Part shown: positions 12,628-62,670 of the stretch, piece by piece
Numbering within the stretch: the first letter of the stretch is position 1
How the letters are laid out: each line of letters opens with the position of its first letter
Source of the DNA: Methanobacteriota archaeon
GTDB taxonomy: Archaea; Thermoplasmatota; DTKX01; VGTL01
Assembly (NCBI GenBank): GCA_016874675.1
Contig: VGTL01000006.1
Span: 9,009 to 73,008 of the forward strand
Reading direction: 5' to 3'
Length of the DNA: 64,000 nt
Program-made: the position numbers and the translations under genes
Notes under the pieces: model-generated
Database searches by the model: none
Told to the model about the DNA's origin: nothing
The model's input: only the letters and a program-made list of their open reading frames with translations

Positions 12628-12745
12628 GGCAGGAAGGCAGCAAGGCAACACGGCAGAAAGGCAGAAAAGGGACGAGACCCCTTCTCGTCCGCTCCCCTTC
12701 TCCCTTGCTGCCTTTCTGCCTTCCCGCCTTCCTGCCTTTCCCCGA
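12628..12745. repeat. Inverted-repeat element (GGCAGNAAG)n ... (CTTNCTGCC)n between convergent genes
   Basis: The element reads 'ggcaggaaggcagcaaggcaacacggcagaaaggcagaaaag' / palindromic centre 'gacgagaccccttctcgtc' / 'cccttgctgcctttctgccttcccgccttcctgcc'. Confidence 0.8.
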
Positions 12746-16415: not shown

Positions 16416-16423
16416 ATCTTGAG

Positions 16424-16572
16424 ACAAGGGGCAAGGGGCAATGGGCAATGGGCAATGGGCAAGGGGCAAGGGGCAAGGGGCAAGGGGCAAGGGGCAAGGG
16501 GCGGACGGAGCCTGCCCGTCCCTTGACCCGTGCCCCGTGCCCCGTGCCCCTCGCCCTTGTTTCTTGCCCCTC
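16424..16572. repeat. (GGGGCAA/GGGCAAT)n array + core + (CCCCGTG)n inverted array; canonical G-quadruplex motifs on both strands
   Basis: About 12 heptamer units are followed by 'ggcggacggaGCCTGCCCGTCCCttgacc' and then 'cgtgccccgtgccccgtgcccctcgccc'. It lies in the sdhB / sod divergent region. Confidence 0.8.
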
Positions 16573-17269: not shown

Positions 17270-17278
17270 ATTGTTGAA

Positions 17279-17466
17279 AGGGAGCAAGGGAGCAAGGCAG
17301 CAAGGGAAGGCAGGAAGGCAGAAAGGCAGCAAGGCAGCAAGGGAAGGCAGCGAGGGGGGAACGAAGGGAGGAGGGCAGAAGGCGGAGAGGGAGAAGGGGA
17401 GGGCGAGAATAGGTACCGTTCCCTTCCTGCCTTCCCTTGCTCCCTTGCTGCCCTCGTCCCTTCGTC
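17279..17466. repeat. Inverted-repeat element (GGCAGCAAG/GGGAGCAAG)n ... (CTTGCTSCC)n between convergent sod and BNR genes
   Basis: A purine-rich arm (17279-17408) is followed by the centre 'aataggtaccgtt' and a pyrimidine arm 'cccttcctgccttcccttgctcccttgctgccctcgtcccttcgtc'. Confidence 0.8.
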
Positions 17467-21734: not shown

Positions 21735-21745
21735 ATAATCATTTG

Positions 21746-21903
21746 AAAGGCGCAAGGCGCAGGGCGCAAGGCGCAAGGGACGAAAGCGCAAGGTACAGGG
21801 CGCGAGGCGGAAGGGATTTGCGTGAGATCCCCCCTTGTTCCTCGCGCCTTGACCCTTGCGCCTCAAGCCTTGCGCCTTGCGCCTCGTGCCTTGCCCCTTC
21901 GCG
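21746..21903. repeat. Inverted-repeat element (GGCGCAA)n ... (TTGCGCC)n between moeA and mobB
   Basis: The element reads 'aaggcgcaaggcgcagggcgcaaggcgcaagggacgaaagcgcaaggtacagggcgcgaggcggaaggg' ... 'ccttgacccttgcgcctcaagccttgcgccttgcgcctcgtgccttgcccctt'. A short partial copy lies at 22703-22730. Confidence 0.8.
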
Positions 21904-30622: not shown

Positions 30623-30647
30623 TCTGGCTGTGACCTTAATGTTATTA

Positions 30648-30659: not shown

Positions 30660-30685
30660 GGTTTATGTCGACACGCTAGCCGGAC

Positions 30686-30912
30686 GAAGGGGGCGGGGAG
30701 CGGGCGGGAAGGGAGGAAGGCAGCAAGGGAAGGCAGGAAGGCAGCAAGGCAGCAAGGGAAGGCAGGAAGGCAGCAAGGCAGCAAGGGAAGGGAGGAAGGG
30801 AGAAATGGGAGGACCGTCGTCCCTTGCTGCCTTCCTGCCTTCCCTTGCTGCCTTGCTGCCTTGCTGCCTTCCTGCCTTCCCTTGCTGCCTTGCTGCCTTG
30901 CTGCCCTCCTGC
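30686..30912. repeat. Largest inverted-repeat element (GGCAGCAAG/GGCAGGAAG)n ... (CTTGCTGCC)n in ftsZ / folD divergent region
   Basis: A roughly 120-nt purine arm is followed by the centre 'gggaggaccgtcgtccc' and a roughly 90-nt pyrimidine arm 'ttgctgccttcctgccttcccttgctgccttgctgccttgctgcc...'. Confidence 0.85.
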
Positions 30913-30921
30913 CAATCGCTC

Positions 30922-30944: not shown

Positions 30945-30974
30945 CGCAGAGGAGTTAAAGGGCTCCGGAGGGGG

Positions 30975-33777: not shown

Positions 33778-33825
33778 GGGGGAACGGGGAACCAAGGCGC
33801 ATGGCGTAGGGTAGGAAGCTAGAAA

Positions 33826-33915
33826 CCTCGGACTTCAGTCCGAGGTCGTTTCACCATAGGAGGCGTCGATGCCCCGGACTTCAGTCCGGGGTGCAAGGTG
33901 CAAGGACATGGTGCA
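33826..33915. repeat. Twin perfect stem-loops CCYCGGAC-TTCA-GTCCGRGG 46 nt apart, followed by (GTGCAAGG)2, between convergent RACo and metF
   Basis: Hairpin 1 'cctcggacttcagtccgagg' lies at 33826-33845 and hairpin 2 'ccccggacttcagtccgggg' at 33872-33891. Each is an 8-bp stem with a 4-nt loop. Confidence 0.7.
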
Positions 33916-36697: not shown

Positions 36698-36807
36698 CCG
36701 GAACCCCGGCGGTGCTTATCTAGTTTTTGCAGCCGGGCCGCCGGCGTGGGGGGCGCGGGCGGGGGCGCGCCGCCAAGGCCGTTCCGGCCGGGTCCTTGCC
36801 CCATGCA

Positions 36808-37590
36808 TCAGACCGCGAAAATGTCGTTGCCGGAATAGACATTGAACCGCCTGCCCCTGAGGAAGCCCACCATGCCCAGGTCGTACCTTCGCGCCAGCCT
36901 GACGGCCTGGTAGAGCGGGGCGCTTCGCGACACCACGAGGGGGATGCGGCACCGGACGCACTTCATCGCGATGTCCATGCCTATCCGGCCGGTGACGAAC
37001 AGGACGCGGTCGTCGAGGGGGCGGCCGGCGAGGAGCTCCCGCCCGATGACCTTGTCGACGGCGTTGTGACGGGAGATGTCGGGCGCCCGGCAAATGACAT
37101 CGGCGTCGCGGTCCAGGAGGAAGGCGTAGTGGTAGCCGCCGGTGCGCTCGAACTCGGTAAACAGCGGGGCGGTCGATTTCTGGATGTCAAGCACGGTTTC
37201 TGGCTCGAGGCGGAAGCCCTTCGCCCTTCTCTCGAGCCGCTCCCCGACGCGCCTGTACTCGGGCGTCCTGCGCCCGCAGTCGGCCCATATGACGCCAAAG
37301 TTCCGCTTGAGGAACGGGAGGCGGCCTTCGAGCCCCTTGATGCGCACCCGGACACCGGCCATCCCCCCCCGCCGCTCCTGCCGGTAGAACGTGATGTCGG
37401 CCGCGGACGCTATCAGCCCCTCGGAGCGCAGGTTGCCGTACACGAACTCGCGCAGCATCCCAGGCGATATTACGGTGTCGAACCCGACCCCCTCGCCCAG
37501 GTCGACGTGCAGCACGAGCTCTTCGGCCAGATGGTCCCGCAGAAGGGTCTCCCGGCCGCGTTCATAACGTCGTATCTGAAGACGCTTCAT
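36808..37590 (-). CDS. fdhD: Formate dehydrogenase accessory sulfurtransferase
   Basis: The protein is 260 aa. 'TGGYHYAFL' and 'ISRHNAVDKVIG' match the FdhD family. Confidence 0.8.
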   Translation of the reverse strand: MKRLQIRRYERGRETLLRDHLAEELVLHVDLGEGVGFDTVISPGMLREFVYGNLRSEGLIASAADITFYRQERRGGMAGVRVRIKGLEGRLPFLKRNFGVIWADCGRRTPEYRRVGERLERRAKGFRLEPETVLDIQKSTAPLFTEFERTGGYHYAFLLDRDADVICRAPDISRHNAVDKVIGRELLAGRPLDDRVLFVTGRIGMDIAMKCVRCRIPLVVSRSAPLYQAVRLARRYDLGMVGFLRGRRFNVYSGNDIFAV

Positions 37591-37617
37591 ACCACCACGT
37601 ATCCGATGTAACCAATA

Positions 37618-37633
37618 GGTATTAATATCTTTG
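37618..37633 (+). promoter_or_regulatory. TATA-like element for cooF-acs operon (divergent from fdhD)
   Basis: The sequence 'ggtattaatatctttg' lies about 75 bp upstream of cooF ATG 37708. Confidence 0.4.
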
Positions 37634-37707
37634 AAAGATTACGTCCCCACAATGGGGAAGGGGCGGCGGCTTGTGCCGCCGTGCTTGGTGGGTAATGGGG
37701 GGATAAT

Positions 37708-38157
37708 GTGAGGAAGGTCAGCTTCGCTCCTGAGATATGCGTCACCTGCGGGACCTGCTCGATCGCCTGCGCGGTCGTCCACTCGATGTCGGGGGACCCC
37801 ACCGGCGCGGCGCTGGAGGTGCCCGTTCCGCGGGCGCGGGTGCACATCGCGGAGAAGGGGGGCAAGCTCAAGCTCGTCCGCTGCCGCAACTGCCGGAAGG
37901 CCAAGTGCATTGCGGCCTGCCCCGAGAAGGCCATAAAGAAGAACGCCCAGGACTACGTGCTCATCGACGAGAGGCTATGCAACGGGTGCTGGAAGTGCAT
38001 CGAGGCCTGCCCGTTCCAGGCGATCGTCAAGTCGGATGACGAGAAGGTGGCACAGAAGTGCGACTCCTGCCTGGACCGGCCGGTGCCGGCCTGCGTGGAG
38101 TCGTGCAACGTGAAGGCGCTCAAGGTCGAGGAAGTGGAGATGGAAGAGGAGGGATGA
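37708..38157 (+). CDS. cooF: CooF-type 4Fe-4S ferredoxin (CODH electron-transfer subunit)
   Basis: Multiple CxxCxxCxxxCP motifs are present, the length is 149 aa, and the gene lies immediately upstream of CODH. Confidence 0.75.
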   Translation: MRKVSFAPEICVTCGTCSIACAVVHSMSGDPTGAALEVPVPRARVHIAEKGGKLKLVRCRNCRKAKCIAACPEKAIKKNAQDYVLIDERLCNGCWKCIEACPFQAIVKSDDEKVAQKCDSCLDRPVPACVESCNVKALKVEEVEMEEEG

Positions 38158-38161
38158 GGAG

Positions 38162-41100
38162 ATGGGTGTGAATTCCAAATGTTCGGTTGACCCGGCGATA
38201 AACAAGATGGCGACCGTGGCGGCGGCCTGCGGCTGCGACACCACGTTCGACAGGACGGAAGCGATGAAGCCCCAGTGCGGCTACGGCGAGCTGGGCCTGT
38301 GCTGCCGCATCTGCATGCAGGGGCCCTGCCGCATCAACCCGTACGGCGCCGAGCCCAGCGTGGGCATATGCGGCGCCAGGGACTACACGATGGTCGCCCG
38401 CAACATCATCCGCATGGCCGCGGCCGGCGCGGCCGCGCACTCCGACCACGGGCGGCACATCGTCCACACCCTGCACTCGGTGGCGGAGGCGAAGGCCCCC
38501 GCCTACCAGATAAAGGACAAAAGGAAGCTCCGCAAGGTGGCCGCCAGGCTGGGACTGCAGGTGGAGGGAAAGAAGGATGACGAGCTGGCGCTCAGGGTGG
38601 CCGAGATCGCCCTCAACGACTATTCCAGCCAGGGGGAGGAGGTCACCGCCTTCGTCAAGGCCTATGTGCCGGAGAAGCGGCTCAAGCTCTGGGACTCGCA
38701 CGACGTCCTCCCGACCAACATCGACCGGGGCATATGCGAGGTCATGCACCGCAGCACGATGGGCTGCGACGCCGACCCTGTCCCGCTGATATTCGGCGGC
38801 ATCAAGGCGGCGCTGGGCGACCTCACCGGCGAGTTCATCAGCACCAACATCTCGGACATACTCTTCGGCACGCCCAGGATAATCAAGGCCGAGGCGAACA
38901 TGAACGTCTTCGACGTCGACGCCGTCAACATCGTCGTCCACGGCCACAACCCGATAATGAGCGAGGTGATGGTGGACGTGGCGGGCGAGCTCGAGGGCGA
39001 GGCCAAGGCCGCCGGGGCGAGGCACGGCGTGGCCATATCTGGCATCTGCTGCACGGCCAACGAGCTCCTGATGAGGCACGGCATCCCCATCGCCACGAAC
39101 TTTTTGGGCCAGGACCTGGCCATCGTGACCGGAGTGGTGGACGCCATGGTCGTGGACTACCAGTGCATCATGCCCGCGCTGGCACCCACCGCCCAGTGCT
39201 TCCACACCAAGCTCATCTCCACGATGCCGATAACCCGCGTCCCGGGCGACATACACATCGAGTTCAACGAGAGGACGGCCAAGGAGGGCGCCCGCCAGAT
39301 AGTCCGGCTGGCCATCGAGGCCTTCAAGCACCGCGACCCGACCAAGATCCAGATACCGGAGATGAAAGCATCCGTCGTTGCGGGCTTCAGCTGCGAGGCG
39401 CTCGAGGACCTGCTGGCCAAGCTCAGCCCCGCCGACCCGTGGGGCTGGCTCGTCGAGCGCATCCGGGACGGCCGCATCCAGGGCGTGGCCCTCATCGCCG
39501 GATGCAACAACCAAAAGAACCTGCACGACGAGTGCCACAACACCGTGGCCATGGAGCTTGCCAAGAACAACGTCCTCGTGCTCGCCACCGGCTGCGCCGC
39601 CCAGGCGTACGCCAAGCACGGCCTGCTGTCGCAGGAGTTCGCCGAGAAGTACGCCGGCGACACCCTCAAGAAGGTCCTCGGGGAGATGGGGCAGGCCGCC
39701 GGGCTCAAGTCGCTGCCGCTCGTGCTGCACATGGGCTCCTGCGTGGACAATTCCCGGGCCCAGGAGCTGGTCGCCACGCTTGCCTCGAAGTTCAACGTGG
39801 ACATCAGCCAGCTCCCCATCGTGGCGAGCGCCCCCGAGGCGATGAGCGAGAAGGCCGTCGCCATCGGCACCTGGGCCATCACGATGGGCTGGCCCACCCA
39901 CGTCGGCGTGTACCCGTACATCAAGGGCTCGAAGCTCGTGAACGAGGTAGCCGAGAAGACCGCCCGCGACGTGTACGGCGGGTTCTTCATCTTCGAGCCC
40001 GACGCCGCCGTCGCCTCGAGGAAGCTCGTCAACATCGTCAAGCACCGCCGCTGGAGGATGGGCATCGGCCCGGAGCCCGTCGGCATCGACGGCTACGGCC
40101 AGGTCGCCGGCACCGAGAAGAGGACCACCCAGCGCCAACTCTACAAGATGGCCATCGATGGCGCCATAATCGCCACGGGCTACGCCGAGATACTGCTCAA
40201 CCGGGCCATCCACAAGCACGGCGCTGGTCACGAGGTCTCCTACCCTGGCACCGCCTACGGCCTGCCCTGCATCGACGCCTGGACCGGGGTCGAGGTCAAG
40301 AAGCTTGCGGACCTGCCGCCCCTCCTGGGCGCCGTCCGCGGACGCATCAAGGAGGAGTACACCTACGAGAACGCCTTCGCCGCCGGCGAGGCCGTCCTCT
40401 ACTCGGCGGAGATAGTCGAGGCGCTCAAGTACCTCGACGGGACGGACCCCTACGAGGACAAACGCCCGTACACCGGATTCGTGGGCGACCCCATCCTGCG
40501 CAAGCTGGGCATCGCATTCGTGGACGACACGATACCGGCCGCGGCAGTCTTCGTCGGCAAGGCCAAGGACCCCAAGGCGCTGGTCAGGCTCGTCCGCGAG
40601 TGCCAGGAGAAGGGCATGCTGATAATCGCCACCTTCGACATCATCCAGCAGCTCCAGGACAACGGCTACCGGTTCGACGAGGGCAACCACTACGGCCTGG
40701 ACGTCATGCTCTACCCCGTCGGCGAGTTCACGCAGGCCATCCACGGCGCCTCGTTCGCCACCCGGGCGGCCCTGGCCTTCGCCGGAATAAAGCGCGGCGA
40801 CCGCAAGGCGCTCTACGAGTACCTGCACAAGCGCCCCCGCGTCTTCGTGGTCCAGCTCGGGCCCCTCGACGACATCAAGGTGGCCGCGGAGTTCGGCGTG
40901 CTCTTCATGGGCAGCCCGACCATCACGGACCAGGACATCGAGGAGATCCCCGACAGGTACGTGATGGAGAAGGACTACACGAAGATACTGCAGCGCGCGA
41001 CCGAGCTTAGGGACATCAAGTACAAGCTGACCAAGGTGCCCATACCGGTGCTCTACGGGCCCTCGTTCGAGGGCGAGTCCATCCGCAAGCAGGACATGTA

Positions 41101-42271
41101 CCTCGAGGCCGGGGGGACGCGCACGCCGGCCCTCGAGTACGTCCGCATGGCCCCGGCCGAGGAGGTCGAGGACGGGAAGACAACCTTCATCGGCAAGGAC
41201 GTGGACGAGCTCCCCGAGGGCAAGGCGATACCTCTGGGCATATTCGTGGACGTCTACGGCCGCAAGATGCAGAAGGACTTCGAGAGCGTGCTCGAACGGC
41301 GGATACACCAGTTCACGAACTTCATAGAGGGCGGGTGGCACACCGGCCAGCGCAACCTCATCTGGATCCGGCTGAGCAAGAACTCGGTCAAGCAGGGCCT
41401 CAAGCTCAAGCACCTGGGCACGGTCCTGCACGCCAAGTTCCACGCCGACTTCAGCGGCATCGTCGACCGCGTGCAGGTGACCGTGGTCACCGACGAATCG
41501 GAGCTCAAGAAGCGGGCCCCGGCTGCCATGAAGGCCTACGACGAGCGCGACGCCCGCATACGCGGCCTGACCGACGAGGCGGTGGACACCTTCTACTCCT
41601 GCACGCTGTGCCAGTCTTTTGCGCCCAACCACCTGTGCGTCATCTCGCCCGAGAGGCTGGGGCTCTGCGGCGCCATCAACTGGCTGGACGCCAAGGCCTC
41701 GTTCGAGATAGCGCCCTCCGGGCCCAACCGGCCCTGGAAGAAGGGCGCCACCGTCGACGAGGTCAAGGGCCAGTGGGAGGGCGTCAACGCCGGCGTGAAG
41801 GAGCTCTCGCGGGGCAAGATAGAGCGCTTCAACTCCTACAGCATCATGGAGGACCCGATGACCTCGTGCGGCTGTTTCGAGTGCATCCTGGCGATGGTGC
41901 CCGAGGCCAACGGGATACTCATCATAAACCGCGAGTACCCGGGCGAGACGCCCATCGGGATGAAGTTCTCCACGCTCGCCGGCCAGGTGGGCGGGGGCAA
42001 CCAGGTGCCCGGGTTCCTGGGCGTCGGAAGGCAGTACATCACCAGCAAGAAGTTCATCTCGGCGGACGGCGGGTTCCAGCGGGTGGTGTGGATGCCCAAG
42101 ATGCTCAAGGACGCCCTGCGCGACCGGCTGGTCGAGCGCGGCAAGGAGGTGGGCGATCCCGACTTCGTCCAAAAGATCGCCGACGAGACGGTCGCCACCA
42201 CCACAGACCAGCTCATGGAGTTCCTGCAGAAGGTGAACCACCCGGCGCTGGGAATGAACCCGATGATGTAG
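38162..42271 (+). CDS. Fused carbon monoxide dehydrogenase (CooS/AcsA) - acetyl-CoA synthase (AcsB) single polypeptide, 1369 aa
   Basis: The N-terminal roughly 635 aa carry the CooS signature 'CGYGELGLCCRICMQGPCRI'. From about nt 40060-40140 the sequence aligns with the bacterial AcsB N-terminus (GAIIATGYAEILLNRAIHKHG...YPGTAYGLPCI...VEVKKLADLPPLL) and continues to the A-cluster motifs 'SCTLCQSFAPNHLCVISPERLGLCGAINWLDAKA' and 'SCGCFECI'. The ORF is uninterrupted. Confidence 0.85.
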   Translation: MGVNSKCSVDPAINKMATVAAACGCDTTFDRTEAMKPQCGYGELGLCCRICMQGPCRINPYGAEPSVGICGARDYTMVARNIIRMAAAGAAAHSDHGRHIVHTLHSVAEAKAPAYQIKDKRKLRKVAARLGLQVEGKKDDELALRVAEIALNDYSSQGEEVTAFVKAYVPEKRLKLWDSHDVLPTNIDRGICEVMHRSTMGCDADPVPLIFGGIKAALGDLTGEFISTNISDILFGTPRIIKAEANMNVFDVDAVNIVVHGHNPIMSEVMVDVAGELEGEAKAAGARHGVAISGICCTANELLMRHGIPIATNFLGQDLAIVTGVVDAMVVDYQCIMPALAPTAQCFHTKLISTMPITRVPGDIHIEFNERTAKEGARQIVRLAIEAFKHRDPTKIQIPEMKASVVAGFSCEALEDLLAKLSPADPWGWLVERIRDGRIQGVALIAGCNNQKNLHDECHNTVAMELAKNNVLVLATGCAAQAYAKHGLLSQEFAEKYAGDTLKKVLGEMGQAAGLKSLPLVLHMGSCVDNSRAQELVATLASKFNVDISQLPIVASAPEAMSEKAVAIGTWAITMGWPTHVGVYPYIKGSKLVNEVAEKTARDVYGGFFIFEPDAAVASRKLVNIVKHRRWRMGIGPEPVGIDGYGQVAGTEKRTTQRQLYKMAIDGAIIATGYAEILLNRAIHKHGAGHEVSYPGTAYGLPCIDAWTGVEVKKLADLPPLLGAVRGRIKEEYTYENAFAAGEAVLYSAEIVEALKYLDGTDPYEDKRPYTGFVGDPILRKLGIAFVDDTIPAAAVFVGKAKDPKALVRLVRECQEKGMLIIATFDIIQQLQDNGYRFDEGNHYGLDVMLYPVGEFTQAIHGASFATRAALAFAGIKRGDRKALYEYLHKRPRVFVVQLGPLDDIKVAAEFGVLFMGSPTITDQDIEEIPDRYVMEKDYTKILQRATELRDIKYKLTKVPIPVLYGPSFEGESIRKQDMYLEAGGTRTPALEYVRMAPAEEVEDGKTTFIGKDVDELPEGKAIPLGIFVDVYGRKMQKDFESVLERRIHQFTNFIEGGWHTGQRNLIWIRLSKNSVKQGLKLKHLGTVLHAKFHADFSGIVDRVQVTVVTDESELKKRAPAAMKAYDERDARIRGLTDEAVDTFYSCTLCQSFAPNHLCVISPERLGLCGAINWLDAKASFEIAPSGPNRPWKKGATVDEVKGQWEGVNAGVKELSRGKIERFNSYSIMEDPMTSCGCFECILAMVPEANGILIINREYPGETPIGMKFSTLAGQVGGGNQVPGFLGVGRQYITSKKFISADGGFQRVVWMPKMLKDALRDRLVERGKEVGDPDFVQKIADETVATTTDQLMEFLQKVNHPALGMNPMM

Positions 42272-42293
42272 GCGATACAAGGGGGAAGCAGGG

Positions 42294-43250
42294 ATGCCGA
42301 TCCAGTTTCCGGCGGAGAAGTACACTGGAAGGATTGCCGAAATAACCCTGGGCGCGACCAAGGAGGAGGGCGGCACCCGCGCGCGCAAGGTGACCGTGGG
42401 GGGCCAGGCGGCCCTGAACTTCCACGGCGCGGACGGGGCCTACCCGAACCCTCCCGCGGTGGCCATGGAGATCTACGACGTCGCTCCGGAGCTCCCCGAG
42501 GAGGTCGTCCGGGCCCTCGGGCCCGTCCTGGACAGGCCGGCCGCCTGGGCCAGAAAGTGCGTCGAGGACTGGCACGCCGACCTCGTCTGCCTGAAGCTCA
42601 AGGGCACCAACCCCGAGGCGGAGAACCGGAGCCCCGAGGACGCGGCCAGGACGGTGGAGGAGGTTCTCAAGGCGGTCGGGGTGCCGCTCGTCGTCTACGG
42701 CTCGGGGGCCGAGGAGAAGGACACCCGGGTGATGCAGGTCGTGGGCGAACTCCTCAAGAAGGAGAACTGCGCCATAGGCCAGGCCGAGAACGAGAAATAC
42801 AAGTCGATCTCGGTGGCGTCCATGGGCTTCGGCCAGAGCCTGGTGGCGTTCTCCAACCTGGACATCAACCTGGCCAAGCAGCTCAACATCCTGCTCACCG
42901 ACTTCGGCGTGAAGCGGGAGCGCATCCTCATGGACCCGCTGCTCGGCGGCCTGGGCTACGGCCTCGACTACTCCTACTCGGTCATCGAGCGCATCCGGCT
43001 TGCGGCGCTCGCCGGGGACACGATGCTCCAGAACCCGATACTCGTGGACACATCGATCGCCTGGAACGCCCGCGAGGCCACGATAGGCGAGCTCGCCGCG
43101 GGCGGCGACGCCGCCCGGCGCGGCCCGGCCTGGGAGGCCACCACCGGCATTGCATCGATGGTCGCCGGCGCCGACCTCCTCGTCATGCGCCACCCGGAGG
43201 CGGTCAAGATGGTGAAGGGCGCGATAGCCGAGCTCAAGGGAGGTGCCTGA
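42294..43250 (+). CDS. acsD: Corrinoid iron-sulfur protein small subunit
   Basis: The protein is 318 aa and TIM-barrel-like. Its operon position lies between the ACS gene and acsC, which it overlaps by 8 nt. Confidence 0.7.
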   Translation: MPIQFPAEKYTGRIAEITLGATKEEGGTRARKVTVGGQAALNFHGADGAYPNPPAVAMEIYDVAPELPEEVVRALGPVLDRPAAWARKCVEDWHADLVCLKLKGTNPEAENRSPEDAARTVEEVLKAVGVPLVVYGSGAEEKDTRVMQVVGELLKKENCAIGQAENEKYKSISVASMGFGQSLVAFSNLDINLAKQLNILLTDFGVKRERILMDPLLGGLGYGLDYSYSVIERIRLAALAGDTMLQNPILVDTSIAWNAREATIGELAAGGDAARRGPAWEATTGIASMVAGADLLVMRHPEAVKMVKGAIAELKGGA

Positions 43251-44580
43251 GATGGGACTGACGGCCCTCGAGATATACAAGCACCTGCCCAAGAAGAACT
43301 GCACCGAGTGCGGGGTGCCCACCTGCCTGGCGTTCGCCATGCAGCTCGCCTCGCTGAAGGTCAAGCTCGAGGCGTGCCCGTACGTGACGGAGCAGGCCAA
43401 GGCGGCGCTGGCCGCCTCCTCGGCCCCGCCCATCCGGCTGGTGAAGATCGGCACGGGGCCCAACGAGGTGGGCATCGGGGACGAGGTGGTGCTCTTCCGC
43501 CACGACAAGACCTTCTTCCACCCGACGGCGCTCGCCGGGATGGTGCTGGACACCTCTCCCGAGGCGGACATCGCCGCCGGGGCCGCAGGGCTCAACTCGC
43601 TCCGGACGGAGCGCGTGGGGCTCATGATGAAGCTGGACATGATAGCCGTGAGGGCGGCGGCCGGCGACCCGGCGCGGTTCGCCCACGCCGTGTCAGTGGT
43701 CAGGTCGAAGTCGGACCTGCCGCTCGTGCTCGTTTCCGACAGCGCCGCCGCCATGGAGGCGGGACTGAAGGTGGCCGGCAAGGACCGGCCGCTGATACAC
43801 GCGGCGACCGCGGCCAACTGGGAGGCGATGACGAAGCTCGCCAAGGACAACAAGTGCCCGCTGGCGATAACGGCCCCCGGCCTGGACGCCCTCTCGGACC
43901 TGGCGGCCAAGGTGAAGGGCGCCGGCGTCGAGGACATCGTGCTCGACATCGGCGAGATGCCCATGGGCAAGGCGCTCGAGACGCTCACGGCCCTGCGGCG
44001 GCTCACCATCAAGAAGAGCAACCGCGCGGTGGGCTACCCGGTGCTCATGCTGGTCAAGGACGACGAGCTCGCGCCCATGCGGGCCGCGCTGGGCGTGATG
44101 AAGTACGCCTCCGCGGTCATCCTGGAGAGGGTGGACCCGGCGACGCTGTACCCCCTCATGACGCTGCGCCAGAACATCTACACCGACCCGCAGAAGCCGA
44201 TACAAGTCAAGGCCGGCATCTACGAGATCGGCAAGCCGACCGACGGCTCGCCGCTGATGTTCACGACCAACTTCTCGCTGACCTTCTTCACCGTGCAGGG
44301 CGACATCGAGAAGAGCAAGAGCCCGGCGTACCTCATGGTGCTGGACACCGAGGGGCTCTCGGTGATGACGGCGTTCGCCGCCGGCAAGCTCACGCCCGAG
44401 ATGGTGGAGAAGATGCTCAACGAGAGCGGGATCAAGGCCAGGCTCGGGCACAGGAAGCTCATCATCCCCGGCATCGTGGCGCGCATGAGCGGGAAGCTTT
44501 GCGAGCTCACGAGCTGGGAAGTGGTCGTGGGCCCGCGGGACTCGTCGGGGATACCGTCGTTCATGAAGACCTGGAAGTGA
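43243..44580 (+). CDS. acsC: Corrinoid iron-sulfur protein large subunit
   Basis: An N-terminal [4Fe-4S] motif 'KKNCTECGVPTCLAFAMQLAS...CPY' is present and the length is 445 aa. Confidence 0.8.
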   Translation: MPEMGLTALEIYKHLPKKNCTECGVPTCLAFAMQLASLKVKLEACPYVTEQAKAALAASSAPPIRLVKIGTGPNEVGIGDEVVLFRHDKTFFHPTALAGMVLDTSPEADIAAGAAGLNSLRTERVGLMMKLDMIAVRAAAGDPARFAHAVSVVRSKSDLPLVLVSDSAAAMEAGLKVAGKDRPLIHAATAANWEAMTKLAKDNKCPLAITAPGLDALSDLAAKVKGAGVEDIVLDIGEMPMGKALETLTALRRLTIKKSNRAVGYPVLMLVKDDELAPMRAALGVMKYASAVILERVDPATLYPLMTLRQNIYTDPQKPIQVKAGIYEIGKPTDGSPLMFTTNFSLTFFTVQGDIEKSKSPAYLMVLDTEGLSVMTAFAAGKLTPEMVEKMLNESGIKARLGHRKLIIPGIVARMSGKLCELTSWEVVVGPRDSSGIPSFMKTWK

Positions 44581-44599
44581 GGGGAAGGGAGGAAGGAAC

Positions 44600-45379
44600 A
44601 TGATAGTGATAAGCGAGAGGGTGAACGGCCTGTTCAAGTCCGTGGGCAAGGCCATAGACGACCGCGACAAGAAATTCCTCCAGGACCTTGCGCTGGACCA
44701 GGTCAAGGCCGGGGCCAACATGCTGGACGTGAACACCGGGCCCGGAGTGGACAGGCCCGAGCAGATAATGAAGTGGATGGTGCAGACCATACAGGAGGTC
44801 ACTGACGTCCAGCTCTCGATAGACGCGCCGGTGCCGTCCGTGATAGAGGCCGGGCTCGAGGTCTGCAAGGGGCGGGCGCTCATCAACTCGACCACGGCCG
44901 AGCAGAAGAAGATGGCATCCCTCTTCCCGCTCGCCAAGATGTACAACGCCGAGATAATCTGCCTCACCCTGGACGAGAAGGGCATCCCCAACGACGCCAA
45001 CAGCCGGTGCGAGCTGGCCCTGACCATGATAACCAACGCGATGGAGTACGAGATAACGCCCGACCGCATCTTCCTGGACCCGCTGGCGCTTCCGGTCGGG
45101 GCGGCACAGGACCAGGGCATGAAGGTGCTCGAATCGCTCAAGCAGTTCAAGACGCTCTGCGACCCGGCGCCGAAGACCACCGTAGGCCTGAGCAACGTGT
45201 CCAACGGGACCAAGGAGAGGCCGCTCATCAACCGGACCTTCCTGACCATGCTCATGGCCTACGGTCTGGACTCGGCCATACTGAACCCGTCCGACACGGA
45301 CCTCATGAACGCCCTGCGCACCTCGGAGATACTGCTCAACCAGAAGCTCTACTGCGACAGCTATCTGCGCGCTTGCTGA
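44600..45379 (+). CDS. acsE: Methyl-THF:corrinoid iron-sulfur protein methyltransferase (pterin-binding)
   Basis: The protein is 259 aa. 'LINERVNG'-like 'VISERVNG', 'MLDVNTG' and 'INSTTAE' match the pterin-binding MeTr family. Confidence 0.8.
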   Translation: MIVISERVNGLFKSVGKAIDDRDKKFLQDLALDQVKAGANMLDVNTGPGVDRPEQIMKWMVQTIQEVTDVQLSIDAPVPSVIEAGLEVCKGRALINSTTAEQKKMASLFPLAKMYNAEIICLTLDEKGIPNDANSRCELALTMITNAMEYEITPDRIFLDPLALPVGAAQDQGMKVLESLKQFKTLCDPAPKTTVGLSNVSNGTKERPLINRTFLTMLMAYGLDSAILNPSDTDLMNALRTSEILLNQKLYCDSYLRAC

Positions 45380-45387
45380 ACGTCGTG

Positions 45388-45480
45388 CAGTCGGTCAAGG
45401 GGACGTGCTGTCGCAATTGGTTAAGGGGACGGGTTGTTGCTATCGGTTGGGGGGATGGGGACGAGGAGGGGGGCGGGGAT
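45388..45480. repeat. Three tandem copies of about 26-bp 'CGCAATTGGTTAAGGGGACG'-like motif downstream of acsE / cooC (convergent)
   Basis: Unit 1 'cagtcggtcaaggggacgtg', unit 2 'ctgtcgcaattggttaaggggacggg' and unit 3 'ttgttgctatcggttggggggatggggacgagg'. G-tracts follow. Confidence 0.65.
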
Positions 45481-46226
45481 CAGGTGTAGGAGGAGACCAT
45501 CCGCTCGACGGCCTTCCTGAACGGAGACGACGGCGGGAGGTCGGCCACGGAAAGGCCCTTCTCCGATATCTGGCATAGGGCCTCGTCCTCGGGTATCGGC
45601 TCCAGGGAGGCGAAGCCGCCCCCGGATGCAAGCTCCCCCAGGCTCCCGGGCAGCCCGCCGGAGCGGTTGACCACCAGGACGAACTTGCCCACGCCCAGCT
45701 TCATCTCCTCGGCCAGCTTCTTTATCCGGACCGCTGTCATGATCCCGGTGCGCGTCGGGTCCGAGAGGATGAACATGACATCCACGTTGCGCGTCGTTCT
45801 GCGCGAGAGGTGCTCCATACCGGCCTCGTTGTCGATGACGACGAAGGCGTACTTCCGGGCGATGTTGTCCAGTATCGTGCGCAGCAGGTTGTTCACGTAG
45901 CAGTAGCAGCCGGGGCCCTCCTGGCGGCCCATCACCAGGAGGTCGAACCCGTCGCCCTCGGTGATGGCCTGCTGGATTCTGAGCGTGATGAACTCCGGCT
46001 TCGATATGCCGGCCGGGAGGCTGTCCATGGTCTTTGACAGGTCCTCGCGTATCGCGCCGACGCTGGTGTCCGCCTTCACCCCGAGCTTCTCGTCCAGGTT
46101 CGTGTTCGGGTCGGCGTCCACCGCGAGGAGGAGCTTCTTTTTGGAGGAGAGCAGATGCACGAGGAGCGCCGCAAGCGTGCTCTTGCCCACTCCGCCCTTG
46201 CCGGCCACGGCCAGCGTCGTCGTCAT
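45480..46226 (-). CDS. cooC: CODH nickel-insertion ATPase CooC/AcsF
   Basis: A deviant Walker A 'VAGKGGVGKST' and a 'CYCY' motif are present. The length is 248 aa. Confidence 0.85.
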   Translation of the reverse strand: MTTTLAVAGKGGVGKSTLAALLVHLLSSKKKLLLAVDADPNTNLDEKLGVKADTSVGAIREDLSKTMDSLPAGISKPEFITLRIQQAITEGDGFDLLVMGRQEGPGCYCYVNNLLRTILDNIARKYAFVVIDNEAGMEHLSRRTTRNVDVMFILSDPTRTGIMTAVRIKKLAEEMKLGVGKFVLVVNRSGGLPGSLGELASGGGFASLEPIPEDEALCQISEKGLSVADLPPSSPFRKAVERMVSSYT

Positions 46227-46243
46227 CGGTCCTGCCCAAAAGA

Positions 46244-46256
46244 CTTAAGATATAAG
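46244..46256. promoter_or_regulatory. TATA-like element in cooC / nuoE divergent region
   Basis: The sequence 'cttaagatataag' is the only AT-rich stretch in this intergenic region. Confidence 0.35.
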
Positions 46257-46266
46257 AACCATTCGG

Positions 46267-46815
46267 TTGAACAACCCTCGTGTCCATCGGTGGAAAGGGG
46301 CGCGATGGTATAGGGCGGATGGGGGAATATTTCTGGAGGAGGCGCAGGCCATCGACCGGGGCGTGGAAGAGGTCCTCGGACGCTTCAAGGGGAGCAGGGG
46401 AGAGCTCATCGGGATTCTCCAGGCGGTGCAGGAGAGGCTGGGCTATCTCCCGGAGCGGGCCATGCTGCGCATCGCCCGGTTCACGAAGGTCCCCGAGAGC
46501 CAGGTGTTCGGCGTCTCGTCGTTCTACGCCCAGTTCCGGTTCAAGCCGGTGGGCCGCCGGCGGGTCATGGTGTGCCAGGGGACCGCCTGCCACGTCCGCG
46601 GCGGGGCCAAGATACTCGACGAGATAGAGAAGAGGCTGAAGATAAGGCCCGGGGGCACGACGCCCGACCTCGAGTACTCGCTGGACACGGTCGCCTGCAT
46701 CGGGGCCTGCGCCCTCGCCCCCACCATAATGATCAACAAGGACACATTCGGCCGGCTCACGCAGAAGAAGGTGGGCGATATCTTCGGCGGTACCCCTGAG
46801 AAGGGGGGCGAATGA
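46267..46815 (+). CDS. NuoE/HndA-like [2Fe-2S] thioredoxin-like subunit of NAD-dependent formate dehydrogenase
   Basis: Cys motifs 'CQGTAC...C...CIGAC' are present. The true start is possibly a downstream GTG near 46360 ('VEEVLGRF...'). Confidence 0.75.
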   Translation: MNNPRVHRWKGARWYRADGGIFLEEAQAIDRGVEEVLGRFKGSRGELIGILQAVQERLGYLPERAMLRIARFTKVPESQVFGVSSFYAQFRFKPVGRRRVMVCQGTACHVRGGAKILDEIEKRLKIRPGGTTPDLEYSLDTVACIGACALAPTIMINKDTFGRLTQKKVGDIFGGTPEKGGE

Positions 46816-46816
46816 G

Positions 46817-48649
46817 ATGACCGGCCCGGGGAAGCTTGCGCTCCACGTCTGCCAGGGGACGGGCTGCGTCTCGTCGAAGTCGCCCGAGATACAGGCGGCG
46901 CTGGAGCGCGAGATTGCGGCCCGGGGCATTTCAGGCCGCGCCGGCGTCAAGCTCACGGGCTGCCACGGGTTCTGCCAGCGCGGGCCCATCGTCATAGTCG
47001 AGCCCGAGGGCATTTTCTACTCCGAGGTCAAGCCCGAGGACGCGCCCGAGATAGTCCGCTCCCACATCGTCGAGGGGAAGCCGGTGGAGAGGCTCTTCTA
47101 CAAGGACCCGGCGAGCGGCAACGCCGTGCCCTTCTACCGGGACATCACCTTCTACGCGAAGCAGCAGCGCGTCGTTCTGCGCAACTGCGGCCACATCAAC
47201 CCCGAAATCATCGACGACTACATCGCCGCCGGCGGATACCGGGCCGAACGCAAGGCGCTGCTCGAGATGGAACCGGAGCAGGTCATCGCCGAGGTCAAGA
47301 GGTCCGGCCTGCGCGGCCGGGGGGGCGCCGGCTTCCCGACCGGACAGAAGTGGGAGTTCTGCCGCCAGGCGCCCGGGAGGCAGAAGTACCTCATCTGCAA
47401 CGCCGACGAGGGCGACCCGGGGGCGTTCATGGACCGCTCCGTGCTCGAGGCCGACCCGCACTCCGTCATCGAGGGCATGGTCATCGCCTCGTACGCCATC
47501 GGCGCCACCGAGGGCTACGTCTACGTGAGGGCCGAGTACCCGCTGGCGGTCCAGAGGGTGGGCATCGCCCTCCGGCAGGCCACCGAGCGCGGATTTGTGG
47601 GAAAGAACATACTGGGCTCCGGCCACGGCCTGGAGCTTCATGTCAAGGAGGGCGCCGGCGCCTTCGTCTGCGGCGAGGAGACCGCGCTCATGATGTCCAT
47701 CGAGGGGCGCCGGGGGATGCCCCGCCCGAGGCCGCCCTTCCCGGCCCAGTCGGGCCTCTGGGGCAAGCCCACCATAATCAACAACGTGAAGTCGCTCGCC
47801 ACCGTCCCGGTCATAATCGACCGGGGAGCGGACTGGTTCGCCTCGACAGGCACCGAGAAGAGCAAGGGCACGGTCGTGTTCGCGCTGACCGGCCTCATGG
47901 CCAACTGCGGGCTGGTGGAGGTCCCGCTGGGCATGACGCTGCGCGAGACCATATTCACCATAGGCGGGGGCCTCCTGGGGGGCCGGAAGTTCAAGGCCGT
48001 CCAGACCGGCGGGCCGTCGGGCGGATGCATCCCGGCAAGCCTCCTGGACCTCCCCGTGGACTACGACTCGCTCAACGCCGCCGGCACCATCATGGGCTCG
48101 GGCGGGATGGTCGTCATGGACGACCGGACCTGCATGGTCGACATCGCGCGGTACTTCATCAACTTCACGGCGCAGGAGTCTTGCGGGAAATGCGTGCCCT
48201 GCAGGCAGGGGACCCGACAGATGCTGGACATCCTGGTGGACCTCACGCAGGGCCGCGGCCGGCCGGGCGACATCGAGCTCCTCCAGGAGATCGGCGAGAG
48301 CGTCAAGGCGGGCTCGCTGTGCGGCCTGGGCCAGACGGCGCCCAACCCGGTGCTGTCCACGATACGCTATTTCCGCGACGAGTACGAAGCGCACATAAAC
48401 GAGAAGCGCTGCCCGGCGCTGGCCTGCAGGCCGCTCCTGAGCTACCGGATAGACCCGGAGAAGTGCGCCGCCTGCGGCCTGTGCAAGCGGGCCTGCCCGT
48501 CCGAGGCCATCGCGGGCCAGAAGAAGAAGCCCCACGTCATCGACCCTGCAAAATGCATCAAGTGCGGCTCGTGCTTCGACGCCTGTCCAAAGAAGTTCGG
48601 GGCGGTGGTCGTTTCATCCGGCGAGACCGGCGCGCAGGGGGTGGCCTGA
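46817..48649 (+). CDS. NuoF/HndC/HylB-like NAD(P)H-binding FMN Fe-S subunit
   Basis: 'GRGGAGFPTGQKWEF' is present. The N-terminus is thioredoxin-like with 2Fe-2S Cys residues (CQGTGC...C). Two C-terminal 4Fe-4S motifs 'CAACGLCKRACP' and 'CIKCGSCFDACP' are present. Confidence 0.85.
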   Translation: MTGPGKLALHVCQGTGCVSSKSPEIQAALEREIAARGISGRAGVKLTGCHGFCQRGPIVIVEPEGIFYSEVKPEDAPEIVRSHIVEGKPVERLFYKDPASGNAVPFYRDITFYAKQQRVVLRNCGHINPEIIDDYIAAGGYRAERKALLEMEPEQVIAEVKRSGLRGRGGAGFPTGQKWEFCRQAPGRQKYLICNADEGDPGAFMDRSVLEADPHSVIEGMVIASYAIGATEGYVYVRAEYPLAVQRVGIALRQATERGFVGKNILGSGHGLELHVKEGAGAFVCGEETALMMSIEGRRGMPRPRPPFPAQSGLWGKPTIINNVKSLATVPVIIDRGADWFASTGTEKSKGTVVFALTGLMANCGLVEVPLGMTLRETIFTIGGGLLGGRKFKAVQTGGPSGGCIPASLLDLPVDYDSLNAAGTIMGSGGMVVMDDRTCMVDIARYFINFTAQESCGKCVPCRQGTRQMLDILVDLTQGRGRPGDIELLQEIGESVKAGSLCGLGQTAPNPVLSTIRYFRDEYEAHINEKRCPALACRPLLSYRIDPEKCAACGLCKRACPSEAIAGQKKKPHVIDPAKCIKCGSCFDACPKKFGAVVVSSGETGAQGVA

Positions 48650-51323: not shown

Positions 51324-51450
51324 CGGGCAGCGGACGGAGGATGGAAGAACGGGGGCAGCAAGGCAGCAAGGCAGCAAGGCAGCAAGGGTACGATACCGCG
51401 TCCCTTTCTGCCTTGCTGCCTTGCTGCCTTGCTGCCTTCCGCTTTCTGCG
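51324..51450. repeat. Inverted-repeat element (GGCAGCAAG)n ... (CTTGCTGCC)n between convergent fdhA and DUF3786 gene
   Basis: The element reads 'gggggcagcaaggcagcaaggcagcaaggcagcaagggtacg' / 'ataccgcgtcc' / 'ctttctgccttgctgccttgctgccttgctgccttcc'. Confidence 0.85.
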
Positions 51451-57365: not shown

Positions 57366-59402
57366 ATGGTCAGCTTCGAGATGACCGGCCGCGACGGCCT
57401 GGCGAGGCTGGGCCGCCTGTACACCCCCCACGGGAGCGCGACCACGCCGGCGCTGCTCCCGGTGGTCCACCCGGGAATCCAGACCATCCCGCCCTCCGAG
57501 ATGAGGCGGCTGTTCGGGGCCGAGATCGTGATAACCAACTCCTACATCATCCGCGGCCGCGTGGAGTTCCGCGAGAGGGCCCTCCGCGAAGGCCTCGGAG
57601 GCCTCATCGGCTGGGACGGCCCGGTCATGACGGACTCGGGCACCTTCCAGAGCTACATGTACGGGGAGGTGGAGGTCTCCCAGCCGGAGATACTGGACTT
57701 CCAAAGGCGCATCGGCTCCGACCTTTGCACCATGCTGGACATATTCTCCCCGCCCGAGACGCCCGAACCCGAGGCGGCCTCGCGGCTTTCCGAGAACTCC
57801 CGGCGCGCCGGGCAGGCCTCGGAGCTGTTCCATGGGGGAGGGGGCACATCGCAGGGGGCAAGGGGCAAGGGACAAATGGCGGGGGGCGAAGAACAGGGAT
57901 TGGTGCTCGCCGTGCAGGGAGGTATCTTCCCCAACCTGCGGGAGCGCTCCGCCGCCGACATCGCGGGACTGGGGTGCGCCGTCCAGGCCATCGGCGGTGT
58001 CGTGCCCCTGATGGAGAGCTACCGCTTCGCGGAGCTCGTGGACGTCGTGATGGCCGCAAAGAGGGCGCTCCACCCGGCCCGGCCGGTCCACCTCTTCGGC
58101 GCCGGCCACCCCATGATGTTCTCGCTCGCCGCGCTCATGGGCTGCGACCTTCTCGACTCCTCCTCCTACGCCAAGTACGCCAAGGACGGCCGGATGATGT
58201 TCAGCTGGGGCACGCGCCACCTCGACGAGCTCTCCCACCTTCCGTGCGGATGCCCCGTCTGCGCGTCGCATGACCCGGAGGGGCTGCGCTCCCTGCCGGA
58301 CCCAGAGCGCGTCCGGAAGCTCGCGGAGCACAACCTCCACGCCTCGTTCTCGGAGCTCCGGGCGGTGCGCCAGGCCATAGCGGAGAGCCGGCTGTGGGAG
58401 CTCGTCGAGGAGCGGTGCCGGGGCCATCCCGCCCTCCTCGACGCCCTCCACGCCCTGGGCGGCCACGCCGCGCAGCTGGAGCGCTTCGCCCCCGCCTCCC
58501 GGACGGGCGCGTTCTTCTACAAGGGGCCGGAGTCGTCGTTTCGGCCGGAGGTGCTGCGCTGGGAGCGGCTGGTCCGGGAGCGGTACACGATGCCCGATTC
58601 GGAGGTCATGGTCTGCCTGGAGGAGGCCCCCAAGCCCTACTCCCGGCACTATGCCTCCCTCGTGCGGCGGATACAGGAGCGCTGGGACGCCCGATTCGTC
58701 GTGACCTCGTTCTTCGGCCCGGTCCCGCTGGAGCTGGACGGCATGTATCCCGTGGCGCAGTCGCTCGTTCCCTCCAGGCTGGACCCCGAGTCGGCGGCGA
58801 GGGTCTCCAGGGCGATGAAGCGCTTCTCCCACGACCTCCGGTCGCAATTCTCGCTGGTGTGGGAGGGGGAGCGGTCCTTCGAGGCGCTGGGGGCGGTGGT
58901 GCCGGAGGGCCGGGGCGTTGTCTCGGACTGGGAGATGCTCCGTGTCCGCGCCACCGCCGAGCTGCAGTTCGGCCGGGACGCCGCCGCCGCGCTCCTCGAA
59001 GGAAAGCTCGAGCTCGTGCTCTCGCCCAACACGGGCCGGGTCCGCAACGTGCTGGCCGGTGGCGAGCACGTGCTCTCGCTGCGGGCCCGGGACGGGTTGT
59101 TCACCCTCAGGATGCCGGGCGCCCGGCGATTGGTCGCCGCGGTCGGACCGCCGCGGCTGCGCGTGGTGGTGGACGACGACGCGGCCGGTTTCGCCGCGGC
59201 CGGCAAGAACGTCTTTTCCCGGTTCGTCAAAGAGTGCGACCCGGAGATAAGGCCCATGGAGGAGGTGGTCGTGGTGGACGGCTCGGACCGGCCGGTGGCC
59301 TGCGGCCGGGCCCTGATGGTCCGCTCCGAGATGCTCGCCTTCACCAGGGGGATGGCGGTGCGGGTGCGCGAGGGCTCAGGGGGGCCTCCCGGGGAGGGGT
59401 GA
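57366..59402 (+). CDS. tgt: Archaeosine tRNA-guanine transglycosylase (ArcTGT) with C-terminal PUA-type domains
   Basis: 'PVMTDSGTFQ' and the zinc site 'CGCPVCASH' are present. The length is 678 aa. It contains an about 22-aa Gly-rich in-frame insertion encoded by a GGGGCAA repeat at about 57833-57900. Confidence 0.85.
   Translation: MVSFEMTGRDGLARLGRLYTPHGSATTPALLPVVHPGIQTIPPSEMRRLFGAEIVITNSYIIRGRVEFRERALREGLGGLIGWDGPVMTDSGTFQSYMYGEVEVSQPEILDFQRRIGSDLCTMLDIFSPPETPEPEAASRLSENSRRAGQASELFHGGGGTSQGARGKGQMAGGEEQGLVLAVQGGIFPNLRERSAADIAGLGCAVQAIGGVVPLMESYRFAELVDVVMAAKRALHPARPVHLFGAGHPMMFSLAALMGCDLLDSSSYAKYAKDGRMMFSWGTRHLDELSHLPCGCPVCASHDPEGLRSLPDPERVRKLAEHNLHASFSELRAVRQAIAESRLWELVEERCRGHPALLDALHALGGHAAQLERFAPASRTGAFFYKGPESSFRPEVLRWERLVRERYTMPDSEVMVCLEEAPKPYSRHYASLVRRIQERWDARFVVTSFFGPVPLELDGMYPVAQSLVPSRLDPESAARVSRAMKRFSHDLRSQFSLVWEGERSFEALGAVVPEGRGVVSDWEMLRVRATAELQFGRDAAAALLEGKLELVLSPNTGRVRNVLAGGEHVLSLRARDGLFTLRMPGARRLVAAVGPPRLRVVVDDDAAGFAAAGKNVFSRFVKECDPEIRPMEEVVVVDGSDRPVACGRALMVRSEMLAFTRGMAVRVREGSGGPPGEG
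57833..57900. repeat. Single-arm GGGGCAA-type array inserted in-frame in arcTGT CDS
   Basis: The sequence 'gggggagggggcacatcgcagggggcaaggggcaagggacaaatggcggggggcgaag' encodes 'GGGGTSQGARGKGQMAGGEEQG' immediately N-terminal to the conserved '...LVLAVQGG' segment. Confidence 0.65.
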
Positions 59403-62586: not shown

Positions 62587-62670
62587 CTGCTATTGGATAG
62601 GGGGACGTATCTTCGCAATTGGTTCGGGGGACGTGTTTGTCCAATTGGGTAGGGGGAACGACGGTGGGAA
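62587..62670. repeat. Three tandem copies of the same about 26-bp 'CAATTGG-N3-GGGGGACG' motif, downstream of the surface-protein gene
   Basis: Unit 1 'ctgctattggatagggggacgtat', unit 2 'cttcgcaattggttcgggggacgtgt' and unit 3 'ttgtccaattgggtagggggaacgacgg'. Unit 2 matches the 45408-45433 unit at about 21 of 26 positions. Confidence 0.65.

Follow-up and report, generated by a model that had tools for sequence, protein, structure and literature searches.

We analysed a 64,000-nucleotide (nt) stretch of DNA from an archaeon of the Thermoplasmatota (contig VGTL01000006.1 of assembly GCA_016874675.1, positions 9,009 to 73,008), referred to here as the window, in which two conserved genes carry in-frame arrays of short G-rich repeats. 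One of them, tgtA, encodes the tRNA-modification enzyme archaeosine tRNA-guanine transglycosylase (ArcTGT), and the other encodes a membrane glycosyltransferase-like protein with a GT-C fold (GT). The two inserts are listed in Table 1 together with their genes and with the seven intergenic repeat elements of the window.

Table 1. Genes, in-frame inserts and intergenic paired-array elements of the window (positions counted from its first letter)
Feature	Position	Strand	Basis or remark
ArcTGT (tgtA) gene, 678 aa	57366..59402	+	Open reading frame (ORF), Pfam, 1iq8 match, AlphaFold (AF2) model
ArcTGT in-frame insert, 22 codons, aa 156-177	57831..57896	+	Alignment, DNA reading
Heptamer core GGGGCAA GGGGCAA GGGACAA (3 x 7 = 21 nt = 7 codons)	57851..57875	+	Tandem Repeats Finder (TRF), period 7, 3.6 copies
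GT-C-fold membrane glycosyltransferase-like gene, 612 aa	10789..12627	+	AF2 model, fold search; archaellin genes directly upstream
GT in-frame insert/expanded loop, 32 codons, aa 413-444, before last transmembrane helix	12025..12120	+	TRF, alignment
Paired-array element, (GGGGCAA)x11, centre GGGGCGGACGG..CCCGTCCC, C-rich arm	16421..16560	.	RNA fold -87.8 kcal/mol, z = -4.3
Paired-array element, AAGGCAGC units, 37-nt higher-order repeat, between convergent genes	17270..17464	.	Subfamily of GT insert
Paired-array element, AAGGCAGC units, 29/37-nt higher-order repeats, upstream of ftsZ, beside TATA-like box	30690..30915	.	
Paired-array element starting at GT stop codon, between convergent genes	12628..12745	.	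Fold z = -6.95
Paired-array element, (GGCAGCAA)x4, centre, (CCTTGCTG)x4.5	51350..51440	.	Fold -83.2 kcal/mol, z = -13.2
Paired-array element, AAGGCGC / CCTTGCG units	21745..21900	.	TRF
Paired-array element (AGGGTTC / CCCTGCA) starting at archaellin stop codon	10165..10270	.	TRF

Two conserved genes with in-frame repeat inserts

The TGT, DUF5591, TGT_C2 and PUA domains were all found by Pfam in the ArcTGT ORF. The protein matches P. horikoshii ArcTGT (1iq8) in sequence with E = 3e-128, and its AF2 model, with a predicted local distance difference test (pLDDT) score of 91.3, reaches a TM-score of 0.93 to the same structure (normalised to the target). Domains, sequence and fold thus agree on an ArcTGT that combines the TGT catalytic TIM barrel with C1, C2 and PUA domains. 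The letters at positions 57833-57900 are those given in the original prediction, and in the ArcTGT frame they translate to HGGGGTSQGARGKGQMAGGEEQG. The insert itself encodes HGGGGTSQGARGKGQMAGGEEQ and is flanked by the conserved segments '...ASELF' and 'GLVLAVQGG'. Its DNA is rich in G (52%) and poor in T (5%), and its heptamer array, with a TRF score of 36, consists of imperfect copies.

No Pfam family matched the GT protein. Its AF2 model (pLDDT 83.7) combines an N-terminal GT-C fold with multiple transmembrane helices and a soluble C-terminal domain, and all 15 significant Foldseek matches in the PDB are GT-C enzymes (E = 2e-9 to 3e-4, TM-score about 0.5), among them STT3, AglB, DPY19, PglB, ArnT, AftA and ALG9. 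On this model, the GT-C label is supported at the level of the fold. The GT insert encodes GKAGRQRGSKAAGKDQGTLGAKGEAGDRTPGR, with an array core at 12028-12060 in which AAGGCAGC is repeated 4.1 times (TRF). Both inserts are in frame and nearly T-free.

The placement of the two inserts between structured elements, as had been predicted, is borne out by the models. Residues 159-175 of ArcTGT and residues 416-439 of GT are the only internal segments of their AF2 models with pLDDT below 50, and the ArcTGT insert is placed between helix 134-159 and strand 178-183. Helix-to-strand loops in TIM barrels face away from the catalytic side, which lies at the C-terminal ends of the strands. By this general geometry, the disordered loop of ArcTGT would be opposite the catalytic face.

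Intergenic paired-array elements and their likeness to the inserts

The seven intergenic elements share one layout: a G-rich array of 7-8-nt units, a short GACG/CGTC centre (for example GGGACGAG...CTCGTCC) and a complementary C-rich array. Units of the G-rich array vary across elements (GGGGCAA, AAGGCAGC, AAGGCGC and AGGGTTC), with GGG recurring every 7-8 nt. The elements fold as long hairpins, with z-scores of -4.3 to -13.2 relative to dinucleotide shuffles. Over the whole window, TRF reported 14 arrays of period 7/8 and 6 inverted pairs, and no Rfam family was found across it at the gathering threshold.

Comparison of the inserts with these elements showed that both are built of intergenic-array units, as proposed in the original prediction. 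Exact copies of the 14-mer GGGGCAAGGGGCAA occur in the window only at 57855, within ArcTGT, and in the array at 16428-16497; when up to two mismatches are allowed, 21 matches are found in the window and 1.2 are expected. Local alignment of the ArcTGT insert to the element at 16425 gave 39 identities over 48 positions and a score of 46, compared with 19.4 +/- 3.8 for the shuffled null, and none of 300 shuffles reached 46. In the same type of comparison, the AAGGCAGC elements gave no alignment with the ArcTGT insert. The GT insert aligns at 40 of 44 positions to the 37-nt higher-order repeat of the elements at 17278 and 30703, which argues for copying of stretches longer than 40 nt and not for unit-by-unit convergence. 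Its scores were 66-74 against the elements at 17278 and 30703 (nulls about 24 +/- 4), and 48-74 when the elements at 51354 and 12627 were included (nulls about 17-26 +/- 4). We conclude that the ArcTGT insert is a G-arm remnant of a GGGGCAA-subfamily array element, the element at 16421-16560 being of the donor-type subfamily, and that the GT insert corresponds to a single higher-order unit from the AAGGCAGC subfamily. Only the G-rich arm is present in either gene, and neither copy folds as a hairpin (z = +1.9 and +0.7 for ArcTGT, z = +1.1 for GT).

Most of the intergenic elements lie at or just after a stop codon, or between convergent genes. Arrays abut an upstream stop codon, or overlap it by 1-9 nt, at position 12627 of the window and at four places in contigs of relatives, which are given here by their L numbers (L002 15468; L036 11863 and 21519; L001 5805). 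Such starts suggest either a function at 3' ends or selection trimming the arrays at the ORF boundary. The elements at 16425 and 30703 adjoin TATA-like boxes (16406-16414 and 30925-30936) that lie upstream of the SdhB-like gene and of ftsZ, respectively; some elements are thus located in promoter or 5'-untranslated regions and not at 3' ends. Two minus-strand ORFs, 29486-31120 and 15444-16490, were considered as read-throughs of arrays and rejected, as their translations are FtsZ and an SdhB-like protein with true starts downstream of the arrays. A half-array of AAGGCGC (2.7 copies, 22705-22723) lies, without an obvious complementary arm, in the 42-nt gap between the stop codon of a MobB-like gene and the next gene. 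In the approximately 2.6 kb at 19139-21745, which end at the element at 21745, no ORF was called by a crude GC3-based gene caller.

The canonical G-quadruplex motif, (G3+ N1-7)x4, is present in the arrays at 16425 and 10168, and both of these elements carry it on both strands (16428-16501 and 10169-10203 on the plus strand, 16515-16556 and 10235-10274 on the minus strand). The motif was found neither in the AAGGCAGC-type arrays nor in either coding insert; for ArcTGT, a G-quadruplex was rejected because two of the loops are 9 nt long and the strict motif fails. In the intergenic elements, 4-6 of the 6 reading frames are free of stop codons. Compared with shuffled sequence, this stop depletion reaches significance in four of the seven elements; compared with random windows of the genome, it mostly does not. 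Among the 43 ORFs of the 64-kb window, Pfam found neither a transposase or RAYT nor an integrase or reverse transcriptase, and no target-site duplications were evident by eye at the seven elements. Direct repeats of a different type, with period 26 (2.5-2.8 copies) and a shared core like CAATTGGTTnnGGGGACG, are located at 45387-45459 and 62592-62657, each just 3' of a stop codon.

The insert sites and the arrays in related archaea

The inserts had been predicted to be specific to this lineage, and an alignment of 32 ArcTGT sequences and a comparison with distant GT homologues confirmed this; the DNA of ten ArcTGT or GT relatives was also examined. The insert region comprises 26 residues in the window and 6 in the 1iq8 crystal structure. 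ArcTGT orthologues of about 50% identity, from Methanomassiliicoccales and other Thermoplasmata, lack the insert, their helix running straight into 'KGxMxLAxxVQG', and distant GT homologues have either no loop or only a short one before the last transmembrane helix. Unrelated archaea with an ordinary segment of equal length at the ArcTGT site were looked for among the aligned orthologues and not found. All close-clade ArcTGTs (at least 62% identity), on the other hand, carry extra residues at the site, from 7 to 52 in number and unrelated in sequence. The C-terminal tail of ArcTGT (59380-59402; alignment columns 755-784) also varies within the clade in length and sequence, and its residues 676-678 are of low confidence in the model.

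In three relatives, L002, L003 and L004, a complete element occupies the ArcTGT site in frame: a G-rich heptamer array, the centre GGGTGACGAC(G/A)AA... and a C-rich array. The whole inserts fold as hairpins, with z-scores of -5.0, -4.5 and -4.9, respectively. All three share exactly the same GGGTGACGAC centre, which indicates that the copies are orthologous and go back to one ancestral insertion. GGG or CCC recurs every 7 nt, and the four bases between them differ by genome and co-vary across the arms (GCAGGGG/ACCCGGN, CCGGGGG/CCCGGNA and GGGTAAA/TTTACCC). Covariation statistics for these hairpins are limited to the fold z-scores, since unit-level insertions and deletions prevent a reliable alignment of the three sequences.

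Each of these inserts resembles the arrays of its own genome. The longest exact word shared with the same contig was 17 nt for the window, compared with at most 12 nt for other contigs; the corresponding values were 25 and at most 13 for L002, 23 and at most 14 for L003, and 15 and at most 14 for L004. The matching places on the same contig are the intergenic elements. One of these in L003, approximately 600 nt upstream of the in-gene copy and immediately ahead of the start codon of ArcTGT, is complete and agrees with that copy in both units and centre. In L039, the window's closest relative (85% identity), only a GACGACAAC centre-like remnant is left. In the basal relative L041, which has 62% identity, a GC content of 0.62 and synteny with L002, 22 kb of DNA contain no arrays and the ArcTGT site holds just 7 residues, so that arrays and expanded inserts co-occur. 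Judged from these sequences, the insertion in ArcTGT is not a young event private to the window; the site is filled across the whole clade (at least about 67% identity), is hypervariable at 7-52 residues and has orthologous centres.

Within the close clade, the GT loop measures between about 20 and 90 residues, and heptamer arrays are again found in it: L036 carries (GGGTGCA)x4, with a 27-mer common to its own contig, and the loops of L037 and L038 carry G-rich heptamers flanking GC hairpins. A third gene with coding arrays in relatives is TtuA-like, with domains of the tRNA thiolation family. In L001, (GGCCGGT)x4.9 lies near its N-terminus (20084-20117), and in L002, (TACCCGG)x4.7 makes up its C-terminus (20822-20854).

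In 185 kb of clade DNA, TRF found 60 period-7/8 arrays of at least 3 copies and 16 inverted pairs. The negative controls were outgroup loci of at most 55% identity from a scan of genome contigs, which yielded no close clade member; in their 418 kb (29 loci, 7 of which have a GC content of 0.60-0.65), one array and no pairs were found. The arrays are thus confined to the clade. At the four loci with gene tables, only 6 of 43 arrays lie inside genes, despite 85-94% coding DNA, and the genes concerned are three only, ArcTGT, GT and the TtuA-like gene. The claim that the repeat family proliferates into coding DNA therefore holds in that in-gene copies exist, but it overstated how frequent they are. 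A composition scan for coding windows resembling the G or C arm was dropped in favour of the period-7/8 criterion, as it was too permissive at 68% GC and dominated by E/R-rich coiled-coil proteins. Composition scans of the window for G-rich coding DNA are likewise dominated by two ORFs, 55-2778 (907 aa) and 2788-6864 (1358 aa), which are of low complexity, rich in E, R and K and without a Pfam family.

Elsewhere, the window contains a Wood-Ljungdahl-type cluster (31888-48649) with RACo, MTHFR, CdhD-like subunits, a pterin-binding protein and a CooC-like protein. A 1369-aa ORF of this cluster has Prismane/CODH domains fused with those of the ACS beta subunit (CdhC).

Origin of the in-gene copies and known counterparts

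The stretches in ArcTGT and GT are probably resident in-frame copies, partly decayed, of a clade-specific family of dispersed hairpin repeats that resembles repetitive extragenic palindromic (REP) sequences and MITEs, miniature transposable elements with inverted repeats. The normal home of the full element, in which G-rich array, GACG/CGTC centre and complementary C-rich array form a long hairpin, would be intergenic. Stop codons are nearly absent from the arms, the G arm lacking T altogether, so that translation could run through a copy if its length is divisible by three. Such a copy would survive inside a gene only where a peptide of Gly, Arg, Lys and Gln (G arm) or of Pro and Thr (C arm) is harmless. 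Such permissive places may be, in ArcTGT, the loop that joins helix to strand in the TIM barrel and, in the GT-C protein, the loop that precedes the last transmembrane helix. The ArcTGT site would have been occupied once, before the clade of at least about 67% identity diversified, and would later have changed by unit slippage, by loss of an arm and by exchange with copies of the same genome, either through gene conversion or through re-insertion. These changes would account for the range of 7-52 residues and for units that track the intergenic arrays of the same genome. The elements may have arrived and been homogenised by transposition, gene conversion or another process, and the inserts are presumably neutral at the protein level.

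Several observations weigh against this explanation. The window ArcTGT insert has only about three imperfect units, without a C-rich arm or a recognisable centre, and its membership in the family depends on the 39/48 identity to a single element. The 17-nt word that it shares with the window is unusual and not extreme, as 5.4% of control 66-nt coding segments share at least 16 nt elsewhere in the window. The inserts of L001, L005 and L006 have neither an array signal nor a significant fold, and freedom from stop codons is only weakly unusual when compared with random windows of a genome of 68% GC. Target-site duplications, terminal tags, a transposase, RAYT or reverse transcriptase were not found in the window, which therefore does not demonstrate mobility. 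The relatives, moreover, are a small sample and mostly short metagenomic contigs.

Some of these observations would fit a local origin, in which permissive, fast-evolving low-complexity loops grew by in-situ replication slippage under a genome-wide, G-rich and T-poor mutational or codon bias and came to resemble the intergenic arrays by convergence. The shortness and imperfection of the window ArcTGT array, the inserts without array signal, the few extra residues already present at the site in basal clade members and the lack of mobility hallmarks are all consistent with such an origin. Convergence does not explain, however, the near-identity of the GT insert to a higher-order unit over 44 nt, the full G-arm, centre and C-arm architecture read in frame in L002-L004, or words of 23-27 nt that are specific to the intergenic elements of the same genome, and such arrays are missing from outgroups whose GC content is the same; we consider a local origin unlikely. 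It is rather improbable that the inserts were selected for a function, be it an in-gene nucleic-acid structure (a hairpin or G-rich tract at which transcription or translation would pause, or a mark for RNA processing) or a flexible basic loop for handling tRNA or substrate. Three diverged orthologous copies have kept arm complementarity despite unit change, the site is occupied across the clade, and the intergenic copies at stop codons and beside TATA-like boxes suggest roles in expression. The complementarity is equally explained, however, by copying from palindromic intergenic elements. Length and sequence are hypervariable with no conserved peptide, several lineages, including that of the window, have lost arrays, an arm or the hairpin, and the loop is predicted to be disordered and sits at a helix-to-strand position of the barrel.

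Tandem units that are not divisible by three within a coding region could also act as a contingency locus, in which gain or loss of one 7-nt unit shifts the ArcTGT frame and switches the gene. With some three imperfect copies, a housekeeping tRNA-modification gene that is intact in all relatives and no frameshifted allele among 20 clade sequences, such phase variation is very improbable. We regard an artefact of assembly, or a chimera, as hardly credible. The source is indeed metagenome-assembled, and repeats are prone to mis-assembly; the array of 21-25 nt is far below the size of a sequencing read, however, and the ORF is intact. An identical ArcTGT protein is recorded from another source and contig (P0001, JGI, 48.6-kb contig), and an insert occupies the same ArcTGT site in all clade members, which come from independent samples.

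The closest analogue of the inserts is the Rickettsia palindromic elements (RPEs), which are palindromic repeats found in frame within many protein-coding genes, where they encode a peptide compatible with the fold (PMC10969869, PMC3733652). In both cases, a dispersed palindromic family with a CGTC/GACG motif and no known dedicated transposase occurs between genes and in frame within unrelated housekeeping genes. The archaeal inserts belong to a family with multiple copies in the same genome, leave the reading frame undisrupted, are absent from orthologues and occupy loops compatible with the fold. Hairpins are found in the intergenic copies and in the in-gene copies of L002-L004, and not in the window copies in ArcTGT and GT. 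RPEs are bacterial, about 100-150 bp long and have a family consensus that encodes a conserved peptide, whereas the archaeal element is made of tandem 7-8-nt units whose variable positions, and thus peptides, differ between genomes and loci. RPE insertions also number in the dozens, but in-gene copies of the archaeal element are rare, having been seen in three genes. The archaeal arrays are thus analogous to RPEs and not members of that family.

The elements also resemble REPs, bacterial interspersed mosaic elements (BIMEs) and MITE-like small palindromic repeats, some of which are intragenic (PMC3733652, PMC12306157). They share with REPs and BIMEs the short GC-rich hairpins, the location at gene 3' ends and in convergent gaps, the multiple copies, the restriction to a lineage and the occasional intragenic copy. 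REPs, however, are single stem-loops of 20-40 nt bearing a terminal tag (GTAG or CGTC), often in association with a RAYT (REP-associated tyrosine transposase), whereas the archaeal elements are 90-230 nt long, have arms of tandem arrays and carry GACG/CGTC at the centre, and neither a terminal tag nor a target-site duplication was recognised. MITEs are marked by terminal inverted repeats, target-site duplications and a related autonomous insertion sequence; the arms of the archaeal elements form inverted repeats simply by their construction, and the 64-kb window contains no insertion sequence.

Among archaea, Methanomicrobiaceae have been reported to carry recurrent potential G-quadruplex sequences next to a C-rich tract, which were described as exclusively intergenic (PMC8044849). 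In these sequences, too, repeated G-runs precede a complementary tract rich in C, so that a hairpin or a G-quadruplex can form, and they lie near gene ends and often between tail-to-tail genes, but they are short, with four G-runs and a C tract of 10-12 nt, whereas the arrays described here are long, paired and in some cases translated. Tandem repeats of Borgs create intrinsically disordered regions (aaTRs), and their in-ORF units are divisible by three (PMC9879509). They too are tandem nucleotide repeats of an archaeal setting that evolve rapidly and provide proteins, often membrane or extracellular ones, with disordered regions. In contrast to the perfect, direct and A-rich repeats within Borg ORFs, the units found here are 7-8 nt long, G- or C-rich, imperfect (80-90% matches) and chromosomal, with an inverted partner array, and only their total length is a multiple of three.

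No description of paired heptamer arrays was found in the literature searched, which is weak evidence given its incomplete coverage. We tentatively propose that the paired 7-8-nt arrays could represent a previously undescribed class of archaeal repeat element, with a G3N4/C3N4 skeleton, a GACG-type centre and variable positions kept alike across the genome by some active process (transposition, templated synthesis or frequent gene conversion, for example). The copies in ArcTGT, GT-C and TtuA genes would then provide the first case in archaea comparable to the 'selfish DNA in protein-coding genes' of Rickettsia, and in orthologous in-gene copies the hairpin arms would stay complementary through the turnover of their units.

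Colonisation of conserved genes by in-frame hairpin repeats would thus not be peculiar to Rickettsia and a few other bacteria, but would also occur in archaea, with an element whose arms are built of tandem units. The inserts inflate length variation and can mislead alignment and orthology pipelines. The arrays, as a clade-specific marker, may be useful for binning and typing this uncultured lineage of Thermoplasmata. Taken together, the orthologous copies within genes represent a natural time series, from complete hairpin through single arm to remnant, which could be used to measure the turnover of the element, its exchange with intergenic copies and the birth of disordered loops in old enzymes.

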